NCBI GenBank assembly: GCA_963666275.2
Contig: CAXXOA010000003.1
Location: 224,001-288,000 of the forward strand
Origin: Oceanispirochaeta sp.
GTDB lineage: Bacteria > Spirochaetota > Spirochaetia > DSM-2461
Length of the DNA: 64,000 nt
Reading direction: 5' to 3'
Part shown: positions 39,137 through 55,551 of the stretch, one piece after another
Numbering within the stretch: position 1 is the first letter of the stretch
Layout of the letters: every line of letters starts with the position of its first letter
Made by a program: the position numbers and the translations under genes
Notes under the pieces: generated by a model
Told to the model about the DNA's origin: nothing
The model's input: only the letters and a program-made list of their open reading frames with translations
Databases searched by the model: none

Positions 39137-39435
39137 TCACAGTTGGTACCTGAGGACGACTATTCCGCAATCAAAAGATCTGGATTCCACCAGTGTCAGG
39201 TCGAGCCTGGCGTTCAGGTCTCCGAATATGGGCAGTCCCTTTCCGATGGCACTGGGGTTAATGAAAAGAAAGAACTCATCTATCAGGCCGTTTTTGATTA
39301 ATCCGGAGACAAAAGCGGCTCCGCCGTAGGCAATCATGTCTTTTCCGGATTGGGATTTGAGTCTCTGTATTTCTTCCACCAGATCCCCTTTTGCCAGGAT
39401 TGTATTTTCCCACTGCGATGTTTCAAGGGTTTTTG
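39137..39435 (-). repeat. Displaced duplicate of the 3' half of the DHFR-family gene (copy of 44889-45182)
   Basis: 294 bp repeat 39142-39435, about 10 mismatches by eye, offset 5747; no start codon region. Confidence 0.95.
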
Positions 39436-44877: not shown

Positions 44878-45429
44878 TTATCCCGCCGGTTGGTACCTGA
44901 GGACGGCTATTCCGCAATCAAAAGACCTGGATTCCACCAGTGTCAGGTCAAGCCTGGCGTTCAGGTCTCCGAATATGGGCAGTCCCTTTCCGATGGCACT
45001 GGGGTTAATGAAAAGAAAGAACTCATCTATCAGGCCGTTCCTGATTAATCCGGAGACAAACGCGGCTCCGCCGTAGGCAATCATGTCTTTTCCGGATTGG
45101 GATTTGAGTCCCTGTATTTCTTCCACCAGATCCCCTTTCGCCAGGGTGGTATTTTCCCACTGCGATGTTTCAAGGGTTTTTGTGAATACAACTTTCTTTG
45201 TGTTTATGAAGGTCTCAGCGCCTTCTTCTTCGGGGTGGGAGGTCCAATAGGGTATGAATCCTTCTGCTAGTTTTCTTCCAAGGACTATACAATCAACATT
45301 TTCAGTGATCTGCTCCACGTATTTTTTGAGTTCCTTGTCCCAGTCAAAGTTAACCCAATCCATTTCGCCTTCAGGTCCGGCAATATACCCGTTTACTGTC
45401 ATTTGAACCTGGAGTTTCAGTTTTCTCAT
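44878..45429 (-). CDS. Dihydrofolate reductase-family (RibD C-terminal) protein
   Basis: TVNGYIAGP, LGRK, YGGA, LIDEFFL.INP..IGKG. Confidence 0.9.
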   Translation of the reverse strand: MRKLKLQVQMTVNGYIAGPEGEMDWVNFDWDKELKKYVEQITENVDCIVLGRKLAEGFIPYWTSHPEEEGAETFINTKKVVFTKTLETSQWENTTLAKGDLVEEIQGLKSQSGKDMIAYGGAAFVSGLIRNGLIDEFFLFINPSAIGKGLPIFGDLNARLDLTLVESRSFDCGIAVLRYQPAG

Positions 45430-45703
45430 GGTTTCTCCTTTTTTATCTGGTTTGAAAGATGAAGAGGGGATTTTGTGATGCTGCTTTTATTTTAGTATAG
45501 TGGGAGCTTTGGTGCTTGTAGGAAGTTGTTTTTGTCTACAAGTGGCCGAAATGTGGGGTGAGGTCAGTCTTCAGGAATAGAATGGTAATTTCTGCCCGTA
45601 CCTTTTGTTCTTTTAACACCGATTTCTGCTGTTTGCCGAAAGCTGGCGTGGTCGTTGCAAATGCAAGGACCATGACAGTAGGCAAATCAGTAGCAAATTT
45701 TTG

Positions 45704-47901
45704 GTACGCCTGACATGGCAATAAACTTATGAGGTGAAAGTCCTCTACAGCTACCCACGTATAGTAAACATGCTATACCAACTGTTAGCCGACGGCAAGG
45801 GCAATTCCGTGAGGAATTGTCTGGAGGAAGCCTGAGTGCAAAACCGGGAGCCCATGTACAAGAATGTGATATGGAATGCGAGTCACGCAGCATTCCACCC
45901 CCCAGTTCTGGAGGCTGGTCGCAAACAAGTTTGCTGCTCGCCCATGCAGCCTAGGGTGAGTCAGCCAATGATGACGATGCCCCGTGGGTGAGGGATAGGG
46001 TAAATCACAGGGTTGTCCGGCCCTGGTCGTAAACTTCGTTTACTGCTCGGGTATGCATCCGAGGAAAGTTTATTGTCTTATTCGGGAACCGAAAGCCGTT
46101 TCGGCTGGAGGTTGTTATTCAAGCGGCATGGCCGCAACCTTAACGAACACAGATCGAAGCAGCTTGCTGCGTAGAACTTTATTCGGGGAGATCTGTCTGC
46201 AAGGCGGTAACGGCGGTTTGACCGTGAGAATCCGGAGGATACCGGGGTAACAAATCCAGGCCTATCAGGGGATGACACTCTGATAAGGAGCCGTTTATAC
46301 GGAACACAAAGAAGTCGTCACAGCGATTCAAACCGGATGATACAGCGTCAGCAGGAGTAATTCTACTGATAAGCAGACAGAAGTCAGCAGAAGGCATAGT
46401 AGCCAACGCCCGGAGTAATGTCCGGTTCATGGTGAAGGTCTGAACATTTCACAAGGAGGAGCCTTATGGTTCTCAAAGGAACAATTTCAGTTTATGCCGG
46501 AATCACTTTTGGCGGACCATGGAGAAACCAGCCTTGAACGAATCTATGATGGATTTGATTTTATCCTCTGAAAATATGCACAAAGCCTGGAAACAGGTCA
46601 AACGCAATGGAGGTAGCCCTGGAATCGACGGTATCACTGTCGAGAAGTTTCCAGGATATCTGAAAACCAGATGGCCTAGAATCAAACGAGCTTTGCTCAA
46701 CGGGTACTATGTACCTTCTCCGGTGCTGAGGGTAGAAATCCCGAAGAAATCCGGAGGAAAACGGATGCTGGGAATCCCGACAGTTCTAGACAGGGTTATC
46801 CAGCAGGCTATTTCACAGGTTCTGAATCCCATATTTGATCCGGATTTCTCGGAGCATAGCTATGGATTCAGACCGGGAAGATCGGCTCACGGAGCAGTGA
46901 AACAGGTAAATCAACATGTCAAATCCGGGTATAGATACGCCGTGGATCTGGACTTGGAAAAGTTCTTTGATACAGTTAATCATGATATCCTGATGCATTT
47001 TGTGGCTGTAAAAGTCTGGGACAAATCTGTCCTCAGACTCATCGGCCGTTACCTGAGAGCCGGTATTCAGTTGGACAATGGAAAAGTGATTCCTACAGAC
47101 ATCGGCACACCCCAAGGCGGGCCCTTATCACCTCTGCTTTCCAATATCCTCCTTGATCGGTTGGATATGGAACTGGAGAGAAGAAATGTGAGGTTCGCAC
47201 GGTATGCAGATGACACTATCCTTTTAACGAAGAGATTGTGTGATGCTAGGAAGATCCTACAGGAAGTTTCAATATTTCTGGTAAGGAAATTGAAATTGGT
47301 AGTGAATCAGGAGAAAACGAAAGTTGCAAAGATAAGGGAGTGCAGTTTCCTGGGATTCACATTCAAGGGTAAGAAGATTCGCTGGACAGAGTCGTCCTTT
47401 GAGGATTTTCGGTATCATCTGAAATATCTGACAAGGCGTTCCTGGGGTGTTTCCATGGAATACAGAATCGGGAAACTCAATGAGTATATCCGGGGCTGGA
47501 TGAACTACTATGGGATCTCCCAATATTACAGCCCTTTACAGAACCTTGATGACTGGCTCCGTAGGAGGATTCGCATGTGTTACTGGAAACAGTGGCGATA
47601 TCCCAGAACGAAAGTCAGGAAACTGATGGAACTGGGGATTCCGAAAGATTTTGCCATTATCACCGGTGCCAGTAGTAAATCCTATTGGCATCTCTCCAAG
47701 TCTTACGCTACCAATGCAGCTATGTCCAATAAATGGCTGGAAGAGCAGGGATTGGTCAATATCAAATATCTGTGGTGTAAAGCCCAGGGATATATCTGAT
47801 CAAATCAGGATTTCGTTTGCTCCATGGAGTGAACCGCCCCGTGCGGACCCGCATGCGGGGTGGTGTGGGGGCTGGAGGTTAAAAGCCTCCGGCTACCCGA
47901 T
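45704..47901 (+). mobile_element. Group II intron copy 1 (attC-targeting, IIC-attC-like), 2198 bp
   Basis: 5' GTACG; domain V GAACCGCCCCGTGCGGACCCGCATGCGGGGTGGTGT; domain VI ending CCCGAT; ends defined by comparison with copy 2. Confidence 0.93.
46519..47799 (+). CDS. ltrA: Group II intron reverse transcriptase/maturase, no endonuclease domain
   Basis: PGIDG, RMLGIPTVLDR, SYGFRPGRS, GTPQGGPLSP, RYADD, maturase GWMNYY. Confidence 0.96.
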   Translation: MEKPALNESMMDLILSSENMHKAWKQVKRNGGSPGIDGITVEKFPGYLKTRWPRIKRALLNGYYVPSPVLRVEIPKKSGGKRMLGIPTVLDRVIQQAISQVLNPIFDPDFSEHSYGFRPGRSAHGAVKQVNQHVKSGYRYAVDLDLEKFFDTVNHDILMHFVAVKVWDKSVLRLIGRYLRAGIQLDNGKVIPTDIGTPQGGPLSPLLSNILLDRLDMELERRNVRFARYADDTILLTKRLCDARKILQEVSIFLVRKLKLVVNQEKTKVAKIRECSFLGFTFKGKKIRWTESSFEDFRYHLKYLTRRSWGVSMEYRIGKLNEYIRGWMNYYGISQYYSPLQNLDDWLRRRIRMCYWKQWRYPRTKVRKLMELGIPKDFAIITGASSKSYWHLSKSYATNAAMSNKWLEEQGLVNIKYLWCKAQGYI

Positions 47902-47915
47902 TTATATAGCAATTA

Positions 47916-48725
47916 TTAGCTCATACCTTTAATATTTACAGAACATTCATCTACTGTTTTTATTTCTTCAAACAAATCAATGTTTGTAAATTTTAACGAA
48001 GCCTTTGATTCGCCCAATACAATTGGTTCACAAATTGAATATAATTCAAAATCTTTACCAATTGTTATACCAAGCTGCAAACCTCCACCTATACTTGAAT
48101 ATGTACCTTCTTCAACAATTTTTGAAATTACATGATAGGGAGCTCTACTTGATAAAATTGGATGGCTAGATTCCTTTTTAAATTTCTGAATTCTTTGTTT
48201 TATATCATCTTTATGAGCACCAAGGAGAATAAAATCATTTTCACATTTCTTAGTCACATCTTCAGATAATTCTCTATTGTCTTTTCCTATTTGTGTTCTA
48301 TAGATTTTATAATCATTGTTCTTTTTGCAGTAACCAAATGAAGAGAACTCAACAGGATAGTTATTAACTATTGGTGTCGTATATTGCTTAACAATTCTAG
48401 TAACAAGATTGTGGATTTCTTCAATGCATGGTACCTTTTTATTTACTGAAATTAAACTTGTAAGGATTTTGTTTAAATTTGTTGTAACAATGAGAGCAAC
48501 TAAAGCTGATCCAGCAAATGCTATTCCAATTTTTTGGTCCCAGTATATCCGATTAAATAATCCGGAATTATCTGATTCCTTACAAATGACCTGTAATTCA
48601 TAAATTTTTGGCCCAAAATCTGTTAGAATCCTATTTGATTCTTGGCCTGATGAATATCTGGTATCAGAAACAGCCCAAAGTGATCTAGATTCATAATTAT
48701 TTATCCATAGTGCAATAGTCGACAT
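47916..48725 (-). CDS. Cassette protein with proteasome-beta/Ntn-hydrolase-like features
   Basis: N-terminal M-S-T-I, AVSDTRYS, KI, IGIAFAG, SIGG spaced as in proteasome beta/HslV subunits (fold inferred). Confidence 0.6.
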   Translation of the reverse strand: MSTIALWINNYESRSLWAVSDTRYSSGQESNRILTDFGPKIYELQVICKESDNSGLFNRIYWDQKIGIAFAGSALVALIVTTNLNKILTSLISVNKKVPCIEEIHNLVTRIVKQYTTPIVNNYPVEFSSFGYCKKNNDYKIYRTQIGKDNRELSEDVTKKCENDFILLGAHKDDIKQRIQKFKKESSHPILSSRAPYHVISKIVEEGTYSSIGGGLQLGITIGKDFELYSICEPIVLGESKASLKFTNIDLFEEIKTVDECSVNIKGMS

Positions 48726-48796
48726 ATTTTAAACCTCAAAAAAAATTATTCATGCCTAAGTTTGTATCTTTCAAGATTGATGATTTTTAAAAGAAT

Positions 48797-49516
48797 CTAT
48801 ATTTCAGAATATTTTCTTCTAATGCTATGTAAGACTTCAAATCCAATTTGCCTCATAGCTGGAAGATGAGGTTTTGAGTCTATATCTGAGAATACAAGTG
48901 TTTCTGGTTTTGTAATATCTCCTTTGTATGTTCGGATTCCAGTTTTATTTGTCTTTGATAACTCATAGTATTTTTCATCTTGTTTAGGATCGACATGAGC
49001 ACCACCATCAGTATCAGCCATATGAAGAACTAGTTCTTCTCTTGTGTATGTTATTGTATCAGAATCTACTAAAATTACTTGATTCCACCAATTTTTAAAT
49101 TCGATAAAATTCCAAGGCCTACTTTCTTTAAAATTTTCTAATGCTGGTTCAAATTTAAAGGTCAATGATTCAGGATTTTTGCTAATTTTTTGCATTGTTA
49201 GTGGAGATGAAAACATTTTTACTCCTGTCTCAACAATAGGTATAGCAGTATTAAGCATCATTAGATTGGAGTCAATTATTGATAATAAAGACTTACTATT
49301 TTTTGTATCATGAAATAAGATTCTAAGTGTTAGAGCTATTCTTTTTGATTCTATAAGATTCCCCTGATCAAATGAATTGCATGATGTATCTAAAAATGTA
49401 ATTTGCTCTTTTAAGGAATCTAGCAGATCTTTTGAGGTTAAGGGTCTTTTTCCCAAGCAACATCTTTTATATTTAATTCCGCTACCACATGAACATGAAT
49501 CATTTCTACTAGTCAT
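48797..49516 (-). CDS. Cassette protein with N-terminal SEC-C zinc motif
   Basis: SRNDSCSCGSGIKYKRCC; C-terminal MADTDGGAHVD. Confidence 0.8.
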   Translation of the reverse strand: MTSRNDSCSCGSGIKYKRCCLGKRPLTSKDLLDSLKEQITFLDTSCNSFDQGNLIESKRIALTLRILFHDTKNSKSLLSIIDSNLMMLNTAIPIVETGVKMFSSPLTMQKISKNPESLTFKFEPALENFKESRPWNFIEFKNWWNQVILVDSDTITYTREELVLHMADTDGGAHVDPKQDEKYYELSKTNKTGIRTYKGDITKPETLVFSDIDSKPHLPAMRQIGFEVLHSIRRKYSEI

Positions 49517-49679
49517 AATAAAACACCTTTATTATTAATAATTTAAAATAAGCTTGCAATGTAGTCGGACCCTACCCTTTTGCTATATAACATTCTTTTA
49601 TGCTGCTGCTCGTTAAGTTGGCGTGGTCATTGCGCATTGCAATGAGCATGACAATAGAGCAGACAGTATCAAAAGCTTG

Positions 49680-51811
49680 GTACGCCTGACATGGCAATAA
49701 ACTTATGAGGTGAAAGTCCTCTACAGCTACCCACGTATAGTAAACATGCTATACCAACTGTTAGCCGACGGCAAGGGCAATTCCGTGAGGAATTGTCTGG
49801 AGGAAGCCTGAGTGCAAAACCGGGAGCCCATGCACAAGAATGTGATAGAAGGCCCAGTTCCGGAGGCGAGTCAGCCAATGATGACGATGCCCCGTGGGTG
49901 AGGGATAGGGTAAATCACAGGGTTGTCCGACCCTGGTCGTAAACTTCGTTTACTGCTCGGGTATGCATCCGAGGAAAGTTTATTGTCTTATTCGGGAACC
50001 GAAAGCCGTTTCGGCTGGAGGTTTTTATTCAAGCGGCATGGCCGTAACCTTAACGAACACAGATCGAAGCAGCTTGCTGCGTAGATCTTTATTCGGGGAG
50101 ATCTGTCTGCAAGGCGGTAACGGCGGTTTGACCGTGAGAATCCGGAGGATACCGGGGTAACAAATCCAGGCCTATCAGGGGATGACACTCTGATAAGGAG
50201 CCGTTTATACGGAACACAAAGAAGTCGTCACAGCGATTCAAACCGGATGATACAGCGTCAGCAGGAGTAATTCTACTGATAAGCAGACAGAAGTCAGCAG
50301 AAGGCATAGTAGCCAACGCCCGGAGTAATGTCCGGTTCATGGTGAAGGTCTGAACATTTCACAAGGAGGAGCCTTATGGTTCTCAAAGGAACAATTTCAG
50401 TTTATGCCGGAATCACTTTTGGCGGACCATGGAGAAACCAGCCTTGAACGAATCTATGATGGATTTGATTTTATCCTCTGAAAATATGCACAAAGCCTGG
50501 AAACAGGTCAAACGCAATGGAGGTAGCCCTGGAATCGACGGTATCACTGTCGAGAAGTTTCCAGGATATCTGAAAACCAGATGGCCTAGAATCAAACGAG
50601 CTTTGCTCAACGGGTACTATGTACCTTCTCCGGTGCTGAGGGTAGAAATCCCGAAGAAATCCGGAGGAAAACGGATGCTGGGAATCCCGACAGTTCTAGA
50701 CAGGGTTATCCAGCAGGCTATTTCACAGGTTCTGAATCCCATATTTGATCCGGATTTCTCGGAGCATAGCTATGGATTCAGACCGGGAAGATCGGCTCAC
50801 GGAGCAGTGAAACAGGTAAATCAACATGTCAAATCCGGGTATAGATACGCCGTGGATCTGGACTTGGAAAAGTTCTTTGATACAGTTAATCATGATATCC
50901 TGATGCATTTTGTGGCTGTAAAAGTCTGGGACAAATCTGTCCTCAGACTCATCGGCCGTTACCTGAGAGCCGGTATTCAGTTGGACAATGGAAAAGTGAT
51001 TCCTACAGACATCGGCACACCCCAAGGCGGGCCCTTATCACCTCTGCTTTCCAATATCCTCCTTGATCGGTTGGATATGGAACTGGAGAGAAGAAATGTG
51101 AGGTTCGCACGGTATGCAGATGACACTATCCTTTTAACGAAGAGATTGTGTGATGCTAGGAAGATCCTACAGGAAGTTTCAATATTTCTGGTAAGGAAAT
51201 TGAAATTGGTAGTGAATCAGGAGAAAACGAAAGTTGCAAAGATAAGGGAGTGCAGTTTCCTGGGATTCACATTCAAGGGTAAGAAGATTCGCTGGACAGA
51301 GTCGTCCTTTGAGGATTTTCGGTATCATCTGAAATATCTGACAAGGCGTTCCTGGGGTGTTTCCATGGAATACAGAATCGGGAAACTCAATGAGTATATC
51401 CGGGGCTGGATGAACTACTATGGGATCTCCCAATATTACAGCCCTTTACAGAACCTTGATGACTGGCTCCGTAGGAGGATTCGCATGTGTTACTGGAAAC
51501 AGTGGCGATATCCCAGAACGAAAGTCAGGAAACTGATGGAACTGGGGATTCCGAAAGATTTTGCCATTATCACCGGTGCCAGTAGTAAATCCTATTGGCA
51601 TCTCTCCAAGTCTTACGCTACCAATGCAGCTATGTCCAATAAATGGCTGGAAGAGCAGGGATTGGTCAATATCAAATATCTGTGGTGTAAAGCCCAGGGA
51701 TATATCTGATCAAATCAGGATTTCGTTTGCTCCATGGAGTGAACCGCCCCGTGCGGACCCGCATGCGGGGTGGTGTGGGGGCTGGAGGTTAAAAGCCTCC
51801 GGCTACCCGAT
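49680..51811 (+). mobile_element. Group II intron copy 2, 2132 bp
   Basis: Same ends (GTACG...CCCGAT) and same RT as copy 1; 66 nt shorter in the 5' ribozyme region. Confidence 0.93.
50429..51709 (+). CDS. ltrA: Group II intron reverse transcriptase/maturase
   Basis: Protein identical to 46519-47799. Confidence 0.96.
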   Translation: MEKPALNESMMDLILSSENMHKAWKQVKRNGGSPGIDGITVEKFPGYLKTRWPRIKRALLNGYYVPSPVLRVEIPKKSGGKRMLGIPTVLDRVIQQAISQVLNPIFDPDFSEHSYGFRPGRSAHGAVKQVNQHVKSGYRYAVDLDLEKFFDTVNHDILMHFVAVKVWDKSVLRLIGRYLRAGIQLDNGKVIPTDIGTPQGGPLSPLLSNILLDRLDMELERRNVRFARYADDTILLTKRLCDARKILQEVSIFLVRKLKLVVNQEKTKVAKIRECSFLGFTFKGKKIRWTESSFEDFRYHLKYLTRRSWGVSMEYRIGKLNEYIRGWMNYYGISQYYSPLQNLDDWLRRRIRMCYWKQWRYPRTKVRKLMELGIPKDFAIITGASSKSYWHLSKSYATNAAMSNKWLEEQGLVNIKYLWCKAQGYI

Positions 51812-53839
51812 TTATATCTCACTTTCCAATGTCCTTATTTCATCCTCTAAAAAAAGAATTTCCTTTTCTTGTTTGAGTTTTGTCTCATTACTAAAGTTAT
51901 TTCTTTTAAATATTTTCCTTAATATATTCTCATTTTTACGTGATAATATTTTTTTAATATTTGGAGTTCGTTCTTTTATTATGATAAAAATTAGAGAAAG
52001 AATATGAGGAGAAAAGGATAATAGAGTTGCATACTTCTCGACACTATTCCAGTTTATTCTTTTAATTGCTAAAAATGAAATTAAGTAAATCATAACTATT
52101 GTAAAAACTAAAATATGTTTTCTTCTATTAATTCTTTTATTAGCTAAGGCTCGAAGTTCTTTTTCATCATTGAGGGTTTTACTGAAATCAACTTTTAGTT
52201 TTTCTAGTAATATTTTTTTAGAACTGATTGAGCTTTTCGTTGCTTCGATGTATTTCAATTCTAAGTCACTCATTGATTGTTGAAGTTTACTATTCTTATC
52301 TTTATTGAGCTCTGCTTCCTGTTTAAAATGCTCTTCTTGAATAAGATATTTTTCTAAAGAATCTTCTGTAATATTAACCAATACTTCTTCAGCATTATCT
52401 TCATTAAGTATTTCTGGTTCTTTTCTTTTTTGTCTTAGATCATTAATACGATTATGCAATGTTTCTTTTGAAACTTTTTTTTGGTTAAACAGATTTTTTA
52501 CTTCTTCATACTCTTCATTAATAGAATCCCCTAAGTGTGCTGAGAGTGTTATTTTAGCTTTATTGACTACATCTACAGTATAAGGAGAATCCTGTTTACC
52601 AAAACCTTTATTCATTTTGAACCAGAATTTATTTACAAGAAAATCAAGATCTGTTGCTAAAGGGATTCCATTTTCTTCCCTAAATGATTTTGCTTCGTAG
52701 GAAATTTTAAGAGTAGTTGAAGTTCCCGTTAAAAGTATGAAGCGGGCATCCTCAAATCTATAAACAGTGGAGTTTTTCCTCAGAATATTTATATAATTTA
52801 AAAATCTAACATTATCCCTTATATCATCAAAGTCTTTTTCTTTCTCAATTTCTTCTATCTTATCCGAATCAATTAGATTATATTTATGATTTTTTTCTGA
52901 AAAATAATCTGACTCATCATCTTGAAAAATCCTATTTGTTTTGAGTAATAAATATAAATCAGATTTTTTTGTAAGTATATCTGATTTATCCTTAGCCCCA
53001 TTAAGAATTGAAGCCATAGCTGTATGTCCAGGTTTTAAGCTTTTTGTTCCCTGTTTTATTTTTTCAGCAATATAAAAGTAGCCTTCAACCTCATCTTTAA
53101 CTTCTTGGAAGTATTTTAAATGGATTTTTTCAGTTCTTTTATTAATTTCCTTAATATATGATAGTAAAGTATTAACTTGTCTTTTAAATATTGGTCCATT
53201 ATAACCAGCTAAATGAAAAAGTATTTCAGTATCCAAATATATGGTGAGTTCAGTATCCCAGGAGCCCATAAGTGAAGGATCTGTATATTTTATACCAGAG
53301 TATAGAACTACTCCTTCTTTTATACTTTGAAGATTATTATTAAACGCTTTATTCTTTTCATTCAAGATAATAAAAGTACTTATATAGTCTGAGTACTTAA
53401 ATCCATTTGTATTAAATAAAAGAAAATTACAAAATGAATTTGAAACATCCAATTTTTGGACATCAGAAAGTTTTGATTGTTGTTTTTCTTCGATAAAACA
53501 TATCAGTTGATCAATAATTGAATCAGTTTCATCAGTAACTGTTTTTTTCAGTTTTAAGATTTTAGAATTGGATTCAGCCTTTGAAATCACATTATACATA
53601 CCATATGATTTTTCTAAAAAATCAATTTTTTTAAGAGATGTTTTCACAACTGATAAAGGTAAATCGAAACTAAATTCTTCATTTATTTTTGTAGTAATCT
53701 CTTCAATGTTAAATCTATGGAGATTATTTATTATGATAGATTCTTTAGCGAACTGACGAACTACATCATAAATATCATGATCCTTTGCATACAATTCTTT
53801 AAAAATTACATATGAAGCTAAACACTTGTGATCTTTCAT
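51812..53839 (-). CDS. Cassette protein: PIN-like domain, coiled coil, two C-terminal TM helices
   Basis: 675 aa; IYLDTEILF resembles PIN strand 1; charged helical region; hydrophobic ILVFTIVMIYLISFLAI and LLSFSPHILSLIFIII. Confidence 0.65.
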   Translation of the reverse strand: MKDHKCLASYVIFKELYAKDHDIYDVVRQFAKESIIINNLHRFNIEEITTKINEEFSFDLPLSVVKTSLKKIDFLEKSYGMYNVISKAESNSKILKLKKTVTDETDSIIDQLICFIEEKQQSKLSDVQKLDVSNSFCNFLLFNTNGFKYSDYISTFIILNEKNKAFNNNLQSIKEGVVLYSGIKYTDPSLMGSWDTELTIYLDTEILFHLAGYNGPIFKRQVNTLLSYIKEINKRTEKIHLKYFQEVKDEVEGYFYIAEKIKQGTKSLKPGHTAMASILNGAKDKSDILTKKSDLYLLLKTNRIFQDDESDYFSEKNHKYNLIDSDKIEEIEKEKDFDDIRDNVRFLNYINILRKNSTVYRFEDARFILLTGTSTTLKISYEAKSFREENGIPLATDLDFLVNKFWFKMNKGFGKQDSPYTVDVVNKAKITLSAHLGDSINEEYEEVKNLFNQKKVSKETLHNRINDLRQKRKEPEILNEDNAEEVLVNITEDSLEKYLIQEEHFKQEAELNKDKNSKLQQSMSDLELKYIEATKSSISSKKILLEKLKVDFSKTLNDEKELRALANKRINRRKHILVFTIVMIYLISFLAIKRINWNSVEKYATLLSFSPHILSLIFIIIKERTPNIKKILSRKNENILRKIFKRNNFSNETKLKQEKEILFLEDEIRTLESEI

Positions 53840-53861: not shown

Positions 53862-54035
53862 ATATAACACTCTGATCACCTGCGCCCCGGCCTGGCCGCA
53901 GGACAGGTATTGGCGTTCTTCTTGCCATCATGGTAAAACATCTTTACTATATTGAGAAGCGATTATTTACTATTGAGTTGAAATATCAGCAAGAAGTATG
54001 ACAATAGGGGTGTCAGGTGCATCAGCATGTTATGT
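53862..54035 (-). other. attC site 3 (174 bp, intact)
   Basis: Minus strand ACATAAC ATGCTGAT g CACCTG a CACCCC ... GGGGCG CAGGTG ATCAGAGT GTTATAT. Confidence 0.9.
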
Positions 54036-54167: not shown

Positions 54168-54746
54168 ATGCAAAAAATAAATATTTCATTGATATTTTTC
54201 TTTCTCTTCTGTTTTTATTCTTGGGGTGAAAGCAGAATTGATGAATATCGTAGGAATTATAGTACAGCTATTATTAGCAATGATACGGAAATTATAGAAA
54301 ATACACTTTCTTTTATAGATAAATTAATCGATCAAAATGAATTTAAGGATATCTCTAGTATTTATTACAACAAAGCTCAATTGCTTAATAAGCTTAAAAG
54401 AACTGATGAAGCTATAGAGGCATTGGAGCATCTGGAATTCCCATTAAATAAATTTTATCAAGCTTCACTATTCGTCAGGATTGGACAAGAAGAAGATGCA
54501 ACAAGCTTATTTGATTCTGTTATTAATTTGTACTTAACTACTTTGAAAGAAGACGAAAGAACTAGAGACAATATACGTTCTTTATATGAAAGTATCATTT
54601 TAGCTAATATCTTAGCTGATAGAGATCAAAGACAAGTTGAAAAGATGATAAGAGATGACATAAGGCTTAGCGATTCAGATATCACTAGATTAAATAAAGC
54701 AAAAGAAGCTCAAAAGGATGCTTTATTGCAAGGGTTATGGCCATGA
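54168..54746 (+). CDS. Exported TPR-like hypothetical protein (antisense to array)
   Basis: Signal peptide; YYNKAQLLNKLKRTDEAIEAL TPR-like helix pair. Confidence 0.7.
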   Translation: MQKINISLIFFFLFCFYSWGESRIDEYRRNYSTAIISNDTEIIENTLSFIDKLIDQNEFKDISSIYYNKAQLLNKLKRTDEAIEALEHLEFPLNKFYQASLFVRIGQEEDATSLFDSVINLYLTTLKEDERTRDNIRSLYESIILANILADRDQRQVEKMIRDDIRLSDSDITRLNKAKEAQKDALLQGLWP

Positions 54747-54871
54747 ATAAACGGGTAGCATTGCTACTGATAACCGGATATCTGTCTACTGCTGTTAATA
54801 TATGATATATTCAAATTAGGATTCTATTACAATGTGTATTTTTAGAGTTAAACGTCATTGAAGAGAGCTTT

Positions 54872-55195
54872 ATGGATCAGAAATTATTTTACAAAAAAAA
54901 ATATCTTTACAAGATATATATGATATTACTATTCTTGAGAATTTCTTCATTTTCAATCTCTGTTTTATGGGTCCTTAGTTCTATAATAATTTTGTTTGAA
55001 CCATTTCTGTCATCGTTCCAAGTTGGTCGTGATGGTTCTATCGCGTTATTTAGTTTTGCGATTGATAATATTGGAAGAAATATCAGTATTTTAGCAATAT
55101 TAGTTACTATAACAATATTTTTTGTCTTCTTATCAAAAGCTTTCAAGAAACGGAACCATGAAATAATTGATTATTGGAGTTTGGGAAGGTATTAA
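54872..55195 (+). CDS. Small two-TM hypothetical protein (antisense to array)
   Basis: 107 aa; two hydrophobic stretches. Confidence 0.5.
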   Translation: MDQKLFYKKKYLYKIYMILLFLRISSFSISVLWVLSSIIILFEPFLSSFQVGRDGSIALFSFAIDNIGRNISILAILVTITIFFVFLSKAFKKRNHEIIDYWSLGRY

Positions 55196-55379: not shown

Positions 55380-55551
55380 ACATAACACCAAAATATGCTG
55401 CGCAGCGGCCTGGCTTGCCAGGTATAGGCGCTTTTCTTGCCCCTTTATTCTAAACAGCTATTCCTTATTTGAGAAGAACAATTCCTTTGTCGAAGCAATT
55501 TCTGCAAGAAATGTGATCTATAGCTTCGACTGCATCATTTTTTTGTTATGC
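55380..55551 (-). other. attC site 4 (172 bp, intact)
   Basis: Minus strand GCATAAC AAAAAAAT g ATGCAG t CGAAGC ... GCTGCG CAGCAT ATTTTGGT GTTATGT; central part homologous to attC3. Confidence 0.88.

Follow-up and report, generated by a model that had tools for sequence, protein, structure and literature searches.

Group II introns of the IIC-attC family, among them S.ma.I2, G.s.I1, Sh.ba.I2, and N.e.I1, insert into attC sites, the recombination sites of integron cassettes. In the parts of the literature consulted, they are described as class IIC RNAs of about 2 kb that begin with GTACG, encode a reverse transcriptase (RT)/maturase without an endonuclease domain, lie antisense to the cassettes in the R'' box of the attC bottom strand, and carry a P1out-like promoter motif. 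Their target is given as TTGT/T (the slash marks the cut) for "the majority" of IIC-attC introns in the part of PMC7923331 consulted, a wording that implies known exceptions, and two primers used for the deletion of S.ma.I2 imply the same site (PMC3001079, in part). The two introns analyzed here occupy consecutive attC sites of Oceanispirochaeta sp. (assembly GCA_963666275.2, contig CAXXOA010000003.1), within a stretch of 64,000 nucleotides that is called the window below. They share these features of structure and insertion, the promoter motif as a candidate, and their RTs fall in the same clade. Unlike the described introns, they carry CAAU instead of ACAA in exon-binding site 1 (EBS1) and cut at G/TT instead of GT/T, with a sister type at GTTA/T, and they have a Shine-Dalgarno-led start out of the RT frame and repeat insertions in domain I. 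The window introns are a target-register variant within the known IIC-attC family, and their sequence makes it very probable that they are intact, recently mobile members of a mainly spirochaete subclade in which EBS1 changed from ACAA to CAAU.

Class IIC introns that target terminators (E.r.) resemble the window introns in having a 4-bp pairing of EBS1 with intron-binding site 1 (IBS1), a single EBS3-IBS3 pair, a hairpin upstream of the target, and a use of lagging strands; in the part of PMC10190682 consulted, the IIC protein grips the DNA hairpin, and base pairing to the target is by EBS1 and EBS3. The E.r. target pairs with an EBS1 of another sequence, which means that differences in EBS1 are in themselves nothing new for class IIC. 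The window introns differ in that their hairpin is an attC and their RT groups within the attC clade, separately from the RTs of the terminator-type spirochaete introns L096, L123, and L125. The IIB/CL1 intron UHB.I2 and class E fragments (PMC7923331 and PMC9229058, both in part) are also found in or next to the attC sites of arrays and of CALINs (clusters of attC sites lacking integron-integrases), but they belong to other RNA and RT classes, and UHB.I2 has the same orientation as the cassettes, whereas the window introns are IIC and antisense. No description of a G/TT or GTTA/T register for IIC-attC introns was found in the literature searched, which lay outside the primary target-site papers and their supplements.

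Position of the cut in the R'' box

The cassette open reading frames (ORFs) around the introns lie on the minus strand, so that the plus strand is the attC bottom strand; both introns lie on the plus strand and are therefore antisense to the cassettes. An earlier note on this DNA, made from the sequence alone, had placed the junctions at 45703/47902 and 49679/51812, splitting TTG/TTATA, and the boundaries and ORF strands agree with this. When the introns are removed in silico, the attC1 and attC2 hairpins return, with lengths of 99 and 101 nt and the ending GTTATAT. In both cases, the cut follows the G of the R'' GTT. The junction is fixed by two pairs of filled and empty twin sites in the genome of the window (G000, with three contigs, C1 to C3), which part exactly after this G: the filled attC2 of the window with its empty counterpart at C1:1290216, and the empty attC4 with a filled counterpart at C1:1056548. 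That attC4 is empty and has the same TTG-TTAT, as the note had stated, was borne out by the attC profile search. The G000 genome holds 10 full copies of the window intron type, and the 5' exon ends with TTG in nine of them and with ATG in one; TT follows the intron in 9/9 copies with an intact 3' end and in 7/8 stranded 3' fragments. The window introns' junction is thus confirmed to lie one base 5' of the TTGT/T published in the part of PMC7923331 consulted, a shift that the note had proposed from recall.

Contigs of sequencing runs X1 to X3, which are probably the source sample and hence nonindependent, span the 5' junction of intron 1, where fewer than 31 of their letters belong to the intron, and at the other intron ends they reach to within about 25 letters into the intron. 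No intron-less joint at either site is listed among the contigs of runs X1 to X4, although contigs drop rare variants and this does not imply absence.

EBS1 predicts the register

EBS1 and EBS3, whose location the note had suggested as a check, were found as CAAU and A, and the EBS1 loop reads ACAA in classic relatives. Loci L137 and L125, in which a G at the EBS3 position goes with a 3' exon starting with C, served to assign that position. The junction count took in both strands of every locus from L004 onward and yielded 140 distinct 5' junctions, in 124 of which EBS1 could be read; one intron may be present in many copies, and the junctions are nonindependent. A CAAn loop goes with a 5' exon ending in TG in 27/27 cases (10 in G000, 7 in G009, and 10 in other records, one of which, L009, has the same intron as G009), an ACnn loop with GT in 88/92, and a TAAn loop with TA in 2/2; other loops are three single cases. 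The fourth EBS1 position covaries perfectly in several introns, with CAAA facing TTTG in L173, CAAC facing GTTG in L178, TAAC facing GTTA in L120, and TAAG facing CTTA in L135. Where two bases of the 3' exon are readable, TT follows 20 of the 21 CAAn introns and none of the 63 scored classic introns. A conserved A of attC lies at -10 from the cut in 68/88 classic sites and at -9 in 24/27 CAAn sites, so spacer length gives no compensation and the position of the cut within the attC structure does change. As judged from this sequence covariation, the register shift of the window introns is encoded in EBS1.

Further loops were observed singly. Locus L137, in the shifted subclade, has EBS1 CCGA at TCGG/C, with EBS3 changed to G (L137:31), and L075:4012 has EBS1 CACA at TGTG/. 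Tandem introns lie one T apart at L190:51-60 and L152:2117-2126, which fits what is expected if introns of neighboring registers stack in one attC.

Phylogeny and family membership

The RT tree was built from 61 selected rows, and a quick tree of 124 rows, which drops RT matches of <300 amino acids (aa), agrees with it; both omit the minus-strand loci (L097, L124, L127, and L128) and near-duplicate copies. In the 61-row tree, the attC-inserting introns form one clade (95/99) with the window RT inside it. This clade includes the class 1 integron introns L088, L089, and L215 to L217, two of which (L089 and L217) match published Sh.ba.I2 primers, as well as L224, a match to both published G.s.I1 primers; S.ma.I2 and N.e.I1 were not identified among the tree rows. 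The window RT belongs to a mainly spirochaete subclade of 12 rows (100/97) that comprises G/TT types, GTTA/T types, and L137 and whose sister is the classic intron L156. A single clade of the 42 classic-branch rows, L173 included, was rejected (p-AU of 0.0095, approximately unbiased test), a grouping named after the tree had been seen. Locus L173 has the G/TT register and lies inside the classic branch, which points to a second origin of G/TT.

Because the window RT is nested among IIC-attC introns, the window introns are read as variant-target members and not as an independent lineage. They are inserted antisense in the R'' box of the attC bottom strand, as family members are; they do not have the TTGT/T target (NTTG/TT, with EBS1 CAAU), but this is a majority trait that does not define the family, so that membership stands, as a variant. 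The two findings that were named beforehand as speaking against a distinct lineage came apart: the RT nests within IIC-attC, whereas the junction, by the twin pairs, is not TTGT/T. The GTACG start, which the note had thought atypical, opens the published G.s.I1 and Sh.ba.I2 primers (PMC3001079, in part) and 83/92 classic junctions. Leon and Roy are said to have described, in 2009, a need for the extrahelical bases of attC.

A third register in the same genome

The eleventh intron of the G000 genome (L120, C1:1046145-1048118) has EBS1 UAAC and sits at GTTA/T, and its RT is 73% identical to that of the window type. A search of 38 family or order genomes, 400 phylum genomes, 400 class genomes, viral contigs, and the best 80 of 548 metagenome matches returned one relative (84%), L135:893-2884, with EBS1 UAAG, the site CTTA/T, and an attC-like hairpin, and no other intron of this type. 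The spacer of the attC that holds the GTTA/T type pairs poorly with the EBS1 of the window type (2/4).

The two registers are predicted to have different effects on the site. After insertion at GTTA/T, 5/7 R-box pairs are kept with the AAC/GTT triplet intact, and the site still folds as an R box. After insertion at G/TT, attC2 (7/7 pairs before) and attC1 (5/7 before) are each left with 3/7, and the loss includes the middle pair of AAC/GTT. By these folds, the R box of the attC is likely lost upon G/TT insertion, from which a block of cassette excision would be expected, and GTTA/T insertion appears to leave the recombination site intact; since GTT and AAC remain paired, the GTTA/T intron may travel inside an excisable cassette. 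A wider scheme can be put forward only tentatively, and we lean against it as a whole: IIC-attC introns would shift along R'' by the four EBS1 bases (G/TT, GT/T, and GTTA/T), and the register would decide their relation to the integron. A G/TT insertion would break the R box, freeze the attC, and remove the target of the type with the downstream register; a GTTA/T insertion would ride in a still-excisable cassette and spread by the integrase as well as by retrohoming; and the registers would partition or compete for attC sites.

Occupancy of attC sites

Sites were listed with an nhmmer profile seeded on occupied attC sites, with manual checks. Scans by folding rules alone were too noisy (four regions and, genome-wide, 177 matches, mostly false among those listed) and were replaced. 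The profile found only a few attC sites in G009, and the comparison concerns G000, with 26 hand-curated sites. In 20 of the 26, the bottom strand lies on plus strands with positive GC skew, taken as the lagging-strand template. Lagging-template sites that pair with at least three of the four EBS1 bases are filled in 10/13 cases, compared with 0/7 for sites pairing with two or fewer; one of these seven holds the GTTA/T type. Among short lagging-template sites, 8/8 matching and 0/4 poorly paired ones are filled, and of the long matching sites, 2/5 are filled, the occupied examples being 157 and 172 nt long. The note's remark that only short attC sites are occupied is accurate for the window but fails as a rule, since the 157- and 172-nt sites are filled elsewhere in G000; with 2/5 long sites filled, the length idea survives as a bias. 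The emptiness of attC3 is most simply due to its poor EBS1 pairing, and attC4 is, to judge from its sequence, a usable long site that is unfilled.

An array of six attC sites in the opposite orientation (C1:1.290-1.305 Mb; L241, C1:1286001-1306000) is filled at 0/6 sites, although five match EBS1; it contains the empty twin of window attC2. In the parts of these sources consulted, IIC introns use lagging strands (PMC10190682), and attC folding is favored on the lagging-strand template (PMC5371416), and by analogy, the empty array accords with lagging-strand use and with attC folding there.

Alternative explanations

A boundary artifact, in which the real site is the classic TTGT/T and the ends are drawn one base off, is scarcely credible. 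The T that follows the intron 3' end does let this end be read one base later, and TTGT/T is the consensus in the part of PMC7923331 consulted, but a G stands directly before the conserved GTACG start, where the T of the classic site is absent, GTT is unbroken in the empty twins, the classic relatives share the intron ends but have EBS1 ACAA and exons ending in GT, and the bulged A falls at -7 only with the CCCGAT end. The note had considered a distinct attC-targeting lineage, and an independent origin of attC targeting might be seen in the well-supported subclade (100/97) with its other registers, in its frequent out-of-frame leader, and in an RT that is only 49 to 52% identical to those of the IIC-attC introns of clinical integrons. 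It is nonetheless highly unlikely, given that the subclade is nested between classic branches with the classic L156 as its sister, that the classic-only clade is rejected, that the subclade agrees with the described members in 5' end, in length class, in having the bottom strand as an antisense target, and in a P1out-like motif, and that G/TT arose again in L173, inside the classic branch. We also regard as unlikely, though less so, that the protein sets the register by its distance from the attC hairpin, with EBS1 adapting later and the length or shape of the attC deciding occupancy. The hold of the protein on the DNA stem and spacer in the IIC cryo-electron microscopy structure (PMC10190682, in part), the contrast of 8/8 short and 2/5 long matching lagging-template sites filled, and the concentration of shifted introns mostly in one protein clade would suit such a role; against it, two introns of the same genome, 73% identical, differ by three bases in register and each have an EBS1 that matches, none of the four short sites that pair poorly with EBS1 holds the window intron type, and L173 switched register outside the shifted clade.

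Several points weigh against the preferred reading, that the window introns are mobile IIC-attC members whose EBS1 sets both register and choice of site. Splicing and mobility are read from DNA alone, and the domain I insertions of the window copies might impair them. The classic-type 5' exons of L153 and L160 are followed by TT and were left unscored in the count of 63, and the G009 copy L104 sits at TTG/TA instead of TTG/TT. Three matching long lagging-template sites are empty, attC4 among them, and most occupied sites pair with only three of the four EBS1 bases. The occupancy set excludes relic sites that contain intron fragments, and the Fisher values for occupancy overstate, since copies in one genome, or of one attC family, are not independent. 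The contrast of orientation comes from one array, which could be a recent arrival, and the leading and lagging strands are read from the GC skew of a three-contig assembly.

Proposed insertion pathway

By what is known of class IIC, the ribonucleoprotein of the intron would bind the folded, single-stranded attC bottom strand on the lagging-strand template. Sequence covariation shows that NTTG is the partner of EBS1 and the T after it the partner of EBS3, and the cut therefore falls at G/TT, one base nearer the attC stem than the classic GT/T. The RNA would reverse-splice into the single-stranded DNA, and its own RT would copy the intron, as expected for the class. Since IBS1 consists of three spacer bases and only the G of GTT, only attC sites with a matching spacer end (usually TT) are used. 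Insertion would part the G from TT, break the R box, and presumably freeze that attC; expression of the next cassette may be maintained by the candidate outward promoter. More EBS1 changes in the same subclade would give more registers (UAAN with NTTA/T).

Intron structure, copies, and leader

The features of the locus are collected in Table 1. Both window introns start with GTACG and end with ACCCGAT, and in both, Rfam RF02001 and RF01998 (domain I and domain II/III motifs) exceed the gathering score. Domains V and VI fold with a bulged A at -7 from the intron end (z of -4.7), and J2/3 is AGC; these motifs have a class C look. A short EBS1-IBS1 pairing of 3 to 4 bp, an EBS3-IBS3 pair, and a DNA hairpin upstream, as in class IIC, are all present. 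The RT matches TIGR04416 at 405 bits (cutoff, 300), and Pfam gives RVT_1 and GIIM and no endonuclease domain; the nearest named relatives are in Spirochaetaceae metagenome-assembled genomes, at 79 to 85% identity. The candidate outward promoter, which a stricter promoter scan did not report, lies close to the P1out position of described IIC-attC introns (Table 3 of PMC3001079, in part). A weak promoter match at 45473-45501 points into copy 1 (2 matches in the region, with 1.2 expected by chance).

Full copies of the window type in G000 have 0 to 97 mismatches to the reference copy, the window copies having 6 and 9. The core copies are 1989 nt long, and S.ma.I2 is 1971 nt (PMC3001079, in part). 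The window copies exceed the core by 42 + 101 nt (both) and by a further 24 + 42 nt (copy 1); the pre-ORF region of 749 to 815 nt, which the note had thought atypical, is not a lineage trait but is due to these copy-specific insertions (24, 42, and 101 nt). The 42-bp repeat family has 26 matches in G000, 11 in intron copies and 15 elsewhere, often inside hairpins. It entered the introns at several sites, and most of these insertions lie between imperfect direct repeats that are short and CC..GG-like. In 5/10 copies, it lies in frame in the RT, adding 14 residues in the K-x-GG loop, and it is also found in the RTs of other spirochaete introns, once at another site. Outside the window, the repeat was noted at G000 C1:1038729, 1043079, and 1060374 and C3:188443 and 191625 and in L008, L010, L012, and L117. 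The copy at G000:C1:1038005-1039914 has a deletion between two points resembling the 42-bp repeat and lacks domain II and the last part of domain I, with the RT frame intact. Eight stranded intron 3' fragments lie in or near the G000 arrays, and L290 (G004) is an internally deleted mini-copy; by their sequences, these point to repeated decay of intron-filled attC sites.

The out-of-frame leader (17 to 26 codons, constant in phase, and overlapping the RT start) was seen in 7/10 shifted-clade rows examined, including L118, L009, L008, L122, L120, and L135, and its length changes are multiples of three. The leader start is in frame in L012, L178, and L136 (TTG start), as it is in classic relatives where found. 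Translational coupling or a -1 frameshift at the leader could limit RT levels.

Table 1. Features of the two introns and of the surrounding cassette array (window positions unless a contig is named)
Feature	Position	Strand	Details or basis
attC1 bottom strand, 5' part to the G of R'' GTT	45611..45703	+	5' exon, IBS1 = TTTG; hairpin after in silico removal
Group IIC-attC intron copy 1	45704..47901	+	2198 nt, G/TT register
Candidate outward promoter P1out, TTGCCG-17-TAGCAT	45770..45798; 49746-49774 in copy 2	-	Intron positions 67-95; own pattern
Hairpin insertion, ~24 nt	45872..45900	+	In place of conserved domain I GAAGG stretch; copy 1 only in window
42-bp interspersed repeat in domain I	45913..45954	+	Copy 1 only in window
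EBS1 = CAAU	45966..45969; 49876-49879 in copy 2	+	8-nt loop on 4-bp stem; fold and covariation with 5' exon
EBS3 = A	46003; 49913 in copy 2	+	Pairs with first 3'-exon T
Second 42-bp repeat insertion	46021..46062; about 49931-49972 in copy 2	+	
101-nt insertion near domain I 3' end	46078..46178; about 49988-50088 in copy 2	+	Short direct repeat flanks
Shine-Dalgarno AGGAGG and 23-codon upstream ORF	46454..46537; 50364-50447 in copy 2	+	Overlaps RT start, out of frame
RT/maturase ORF, copy 1	46519..47799	+	426 aa, YADD intact
Domains V and VI	47833..47901	+	Bulged A at 47895
Detached remainder of attC1 R''	47902..47907	+	3' exon; IBS3 = T
Cassette ORF, 269 aa	47916..48725	-	No Pfam, NCBIfam, or PADLOC family
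Cassette ORF, 239 aa	48797..49516	-	SEC-C motif at N terminus
attC2 bottom strand, 5' part	49585..49679	+	IBS1 = CTTG; empty twin G000:C1:1290216
Group IIC-attC intron copy 2	49680..51811	+	2132 nt, G/TT register
RT/maturase ORF, copy 2	50429..51709	+	Protein identical to copy 1
Detached remainder of attC2 R''	51812-51817		
Cassette ORF, 675 aa	51812..53839	-	No family found; stop codon within detached attC2 R'' remainder
attC3, 174 nt, empty	53862..54035	+	Would-be IBS1 CATG, 2/4 pairs with EBS1
attC4, 172 nt, empty	55380..55551	+	TTTG, 3/4 pairs; filled twin G000:C1:1056548
Stranded intron 3' fragments	C1:1032512, 1034514, 1050318; C2:1165104, 1166911, 1173876; C3:182668, 195140		

Cassette array of the window

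The window array has four attC sites and, by the ORF list and the attC profile search, no integrase ORF in 36000-64000, and is therefore a CALIN. An integron integrase lies next to another array of the genome (G000:C1:1063487-1064710; TIGR02249, 389 bits, with a cutoff of 265). A defense-system search of the cassette proteins returned nothing except the weak SEC-C match. The cassette between attC3 and attC4 (54168-55195) has two ORFs on the plus strand, opposite to the other cassettes, for a weak TPR-like protein and a small protein without a known family. Upstream of the introns, the RibD_C gene (44878-45429) is partly duplicated (294 bp, 97% identical, at 39142-39435 and 44889-45182), and the block between the duplicates presumably encodes an IclR regulator, a hydrolase, and a transporter.

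Implications

The target of IIC-attC introns is given in print as one consensus, and at least three registers were found here, each predicted by EBS1, with G/TT having arisen at least twice. Such naturally occurring variants are evidence that the aim of a class IIC intron can be moved by three bases on a structured DNA target, and the matched intron and target pairs let the role of the RNA loop be weighed against the grip of the protein on the hairpin. According to the part of PMC7923331 consulted, IIC introns are unused as targeting tools, since their reverse splicing is not fully understood. The G000 genome, in which two intron types meet 26 attC sites in two orientations to replication, is a natural experiment on target choice. 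If the GTTA/T type does not keep its attC active, the case is a well-documented variant of a known family; if it does, the finding would bear on the proposal that introns take part in the formation and traffic of cassettes.

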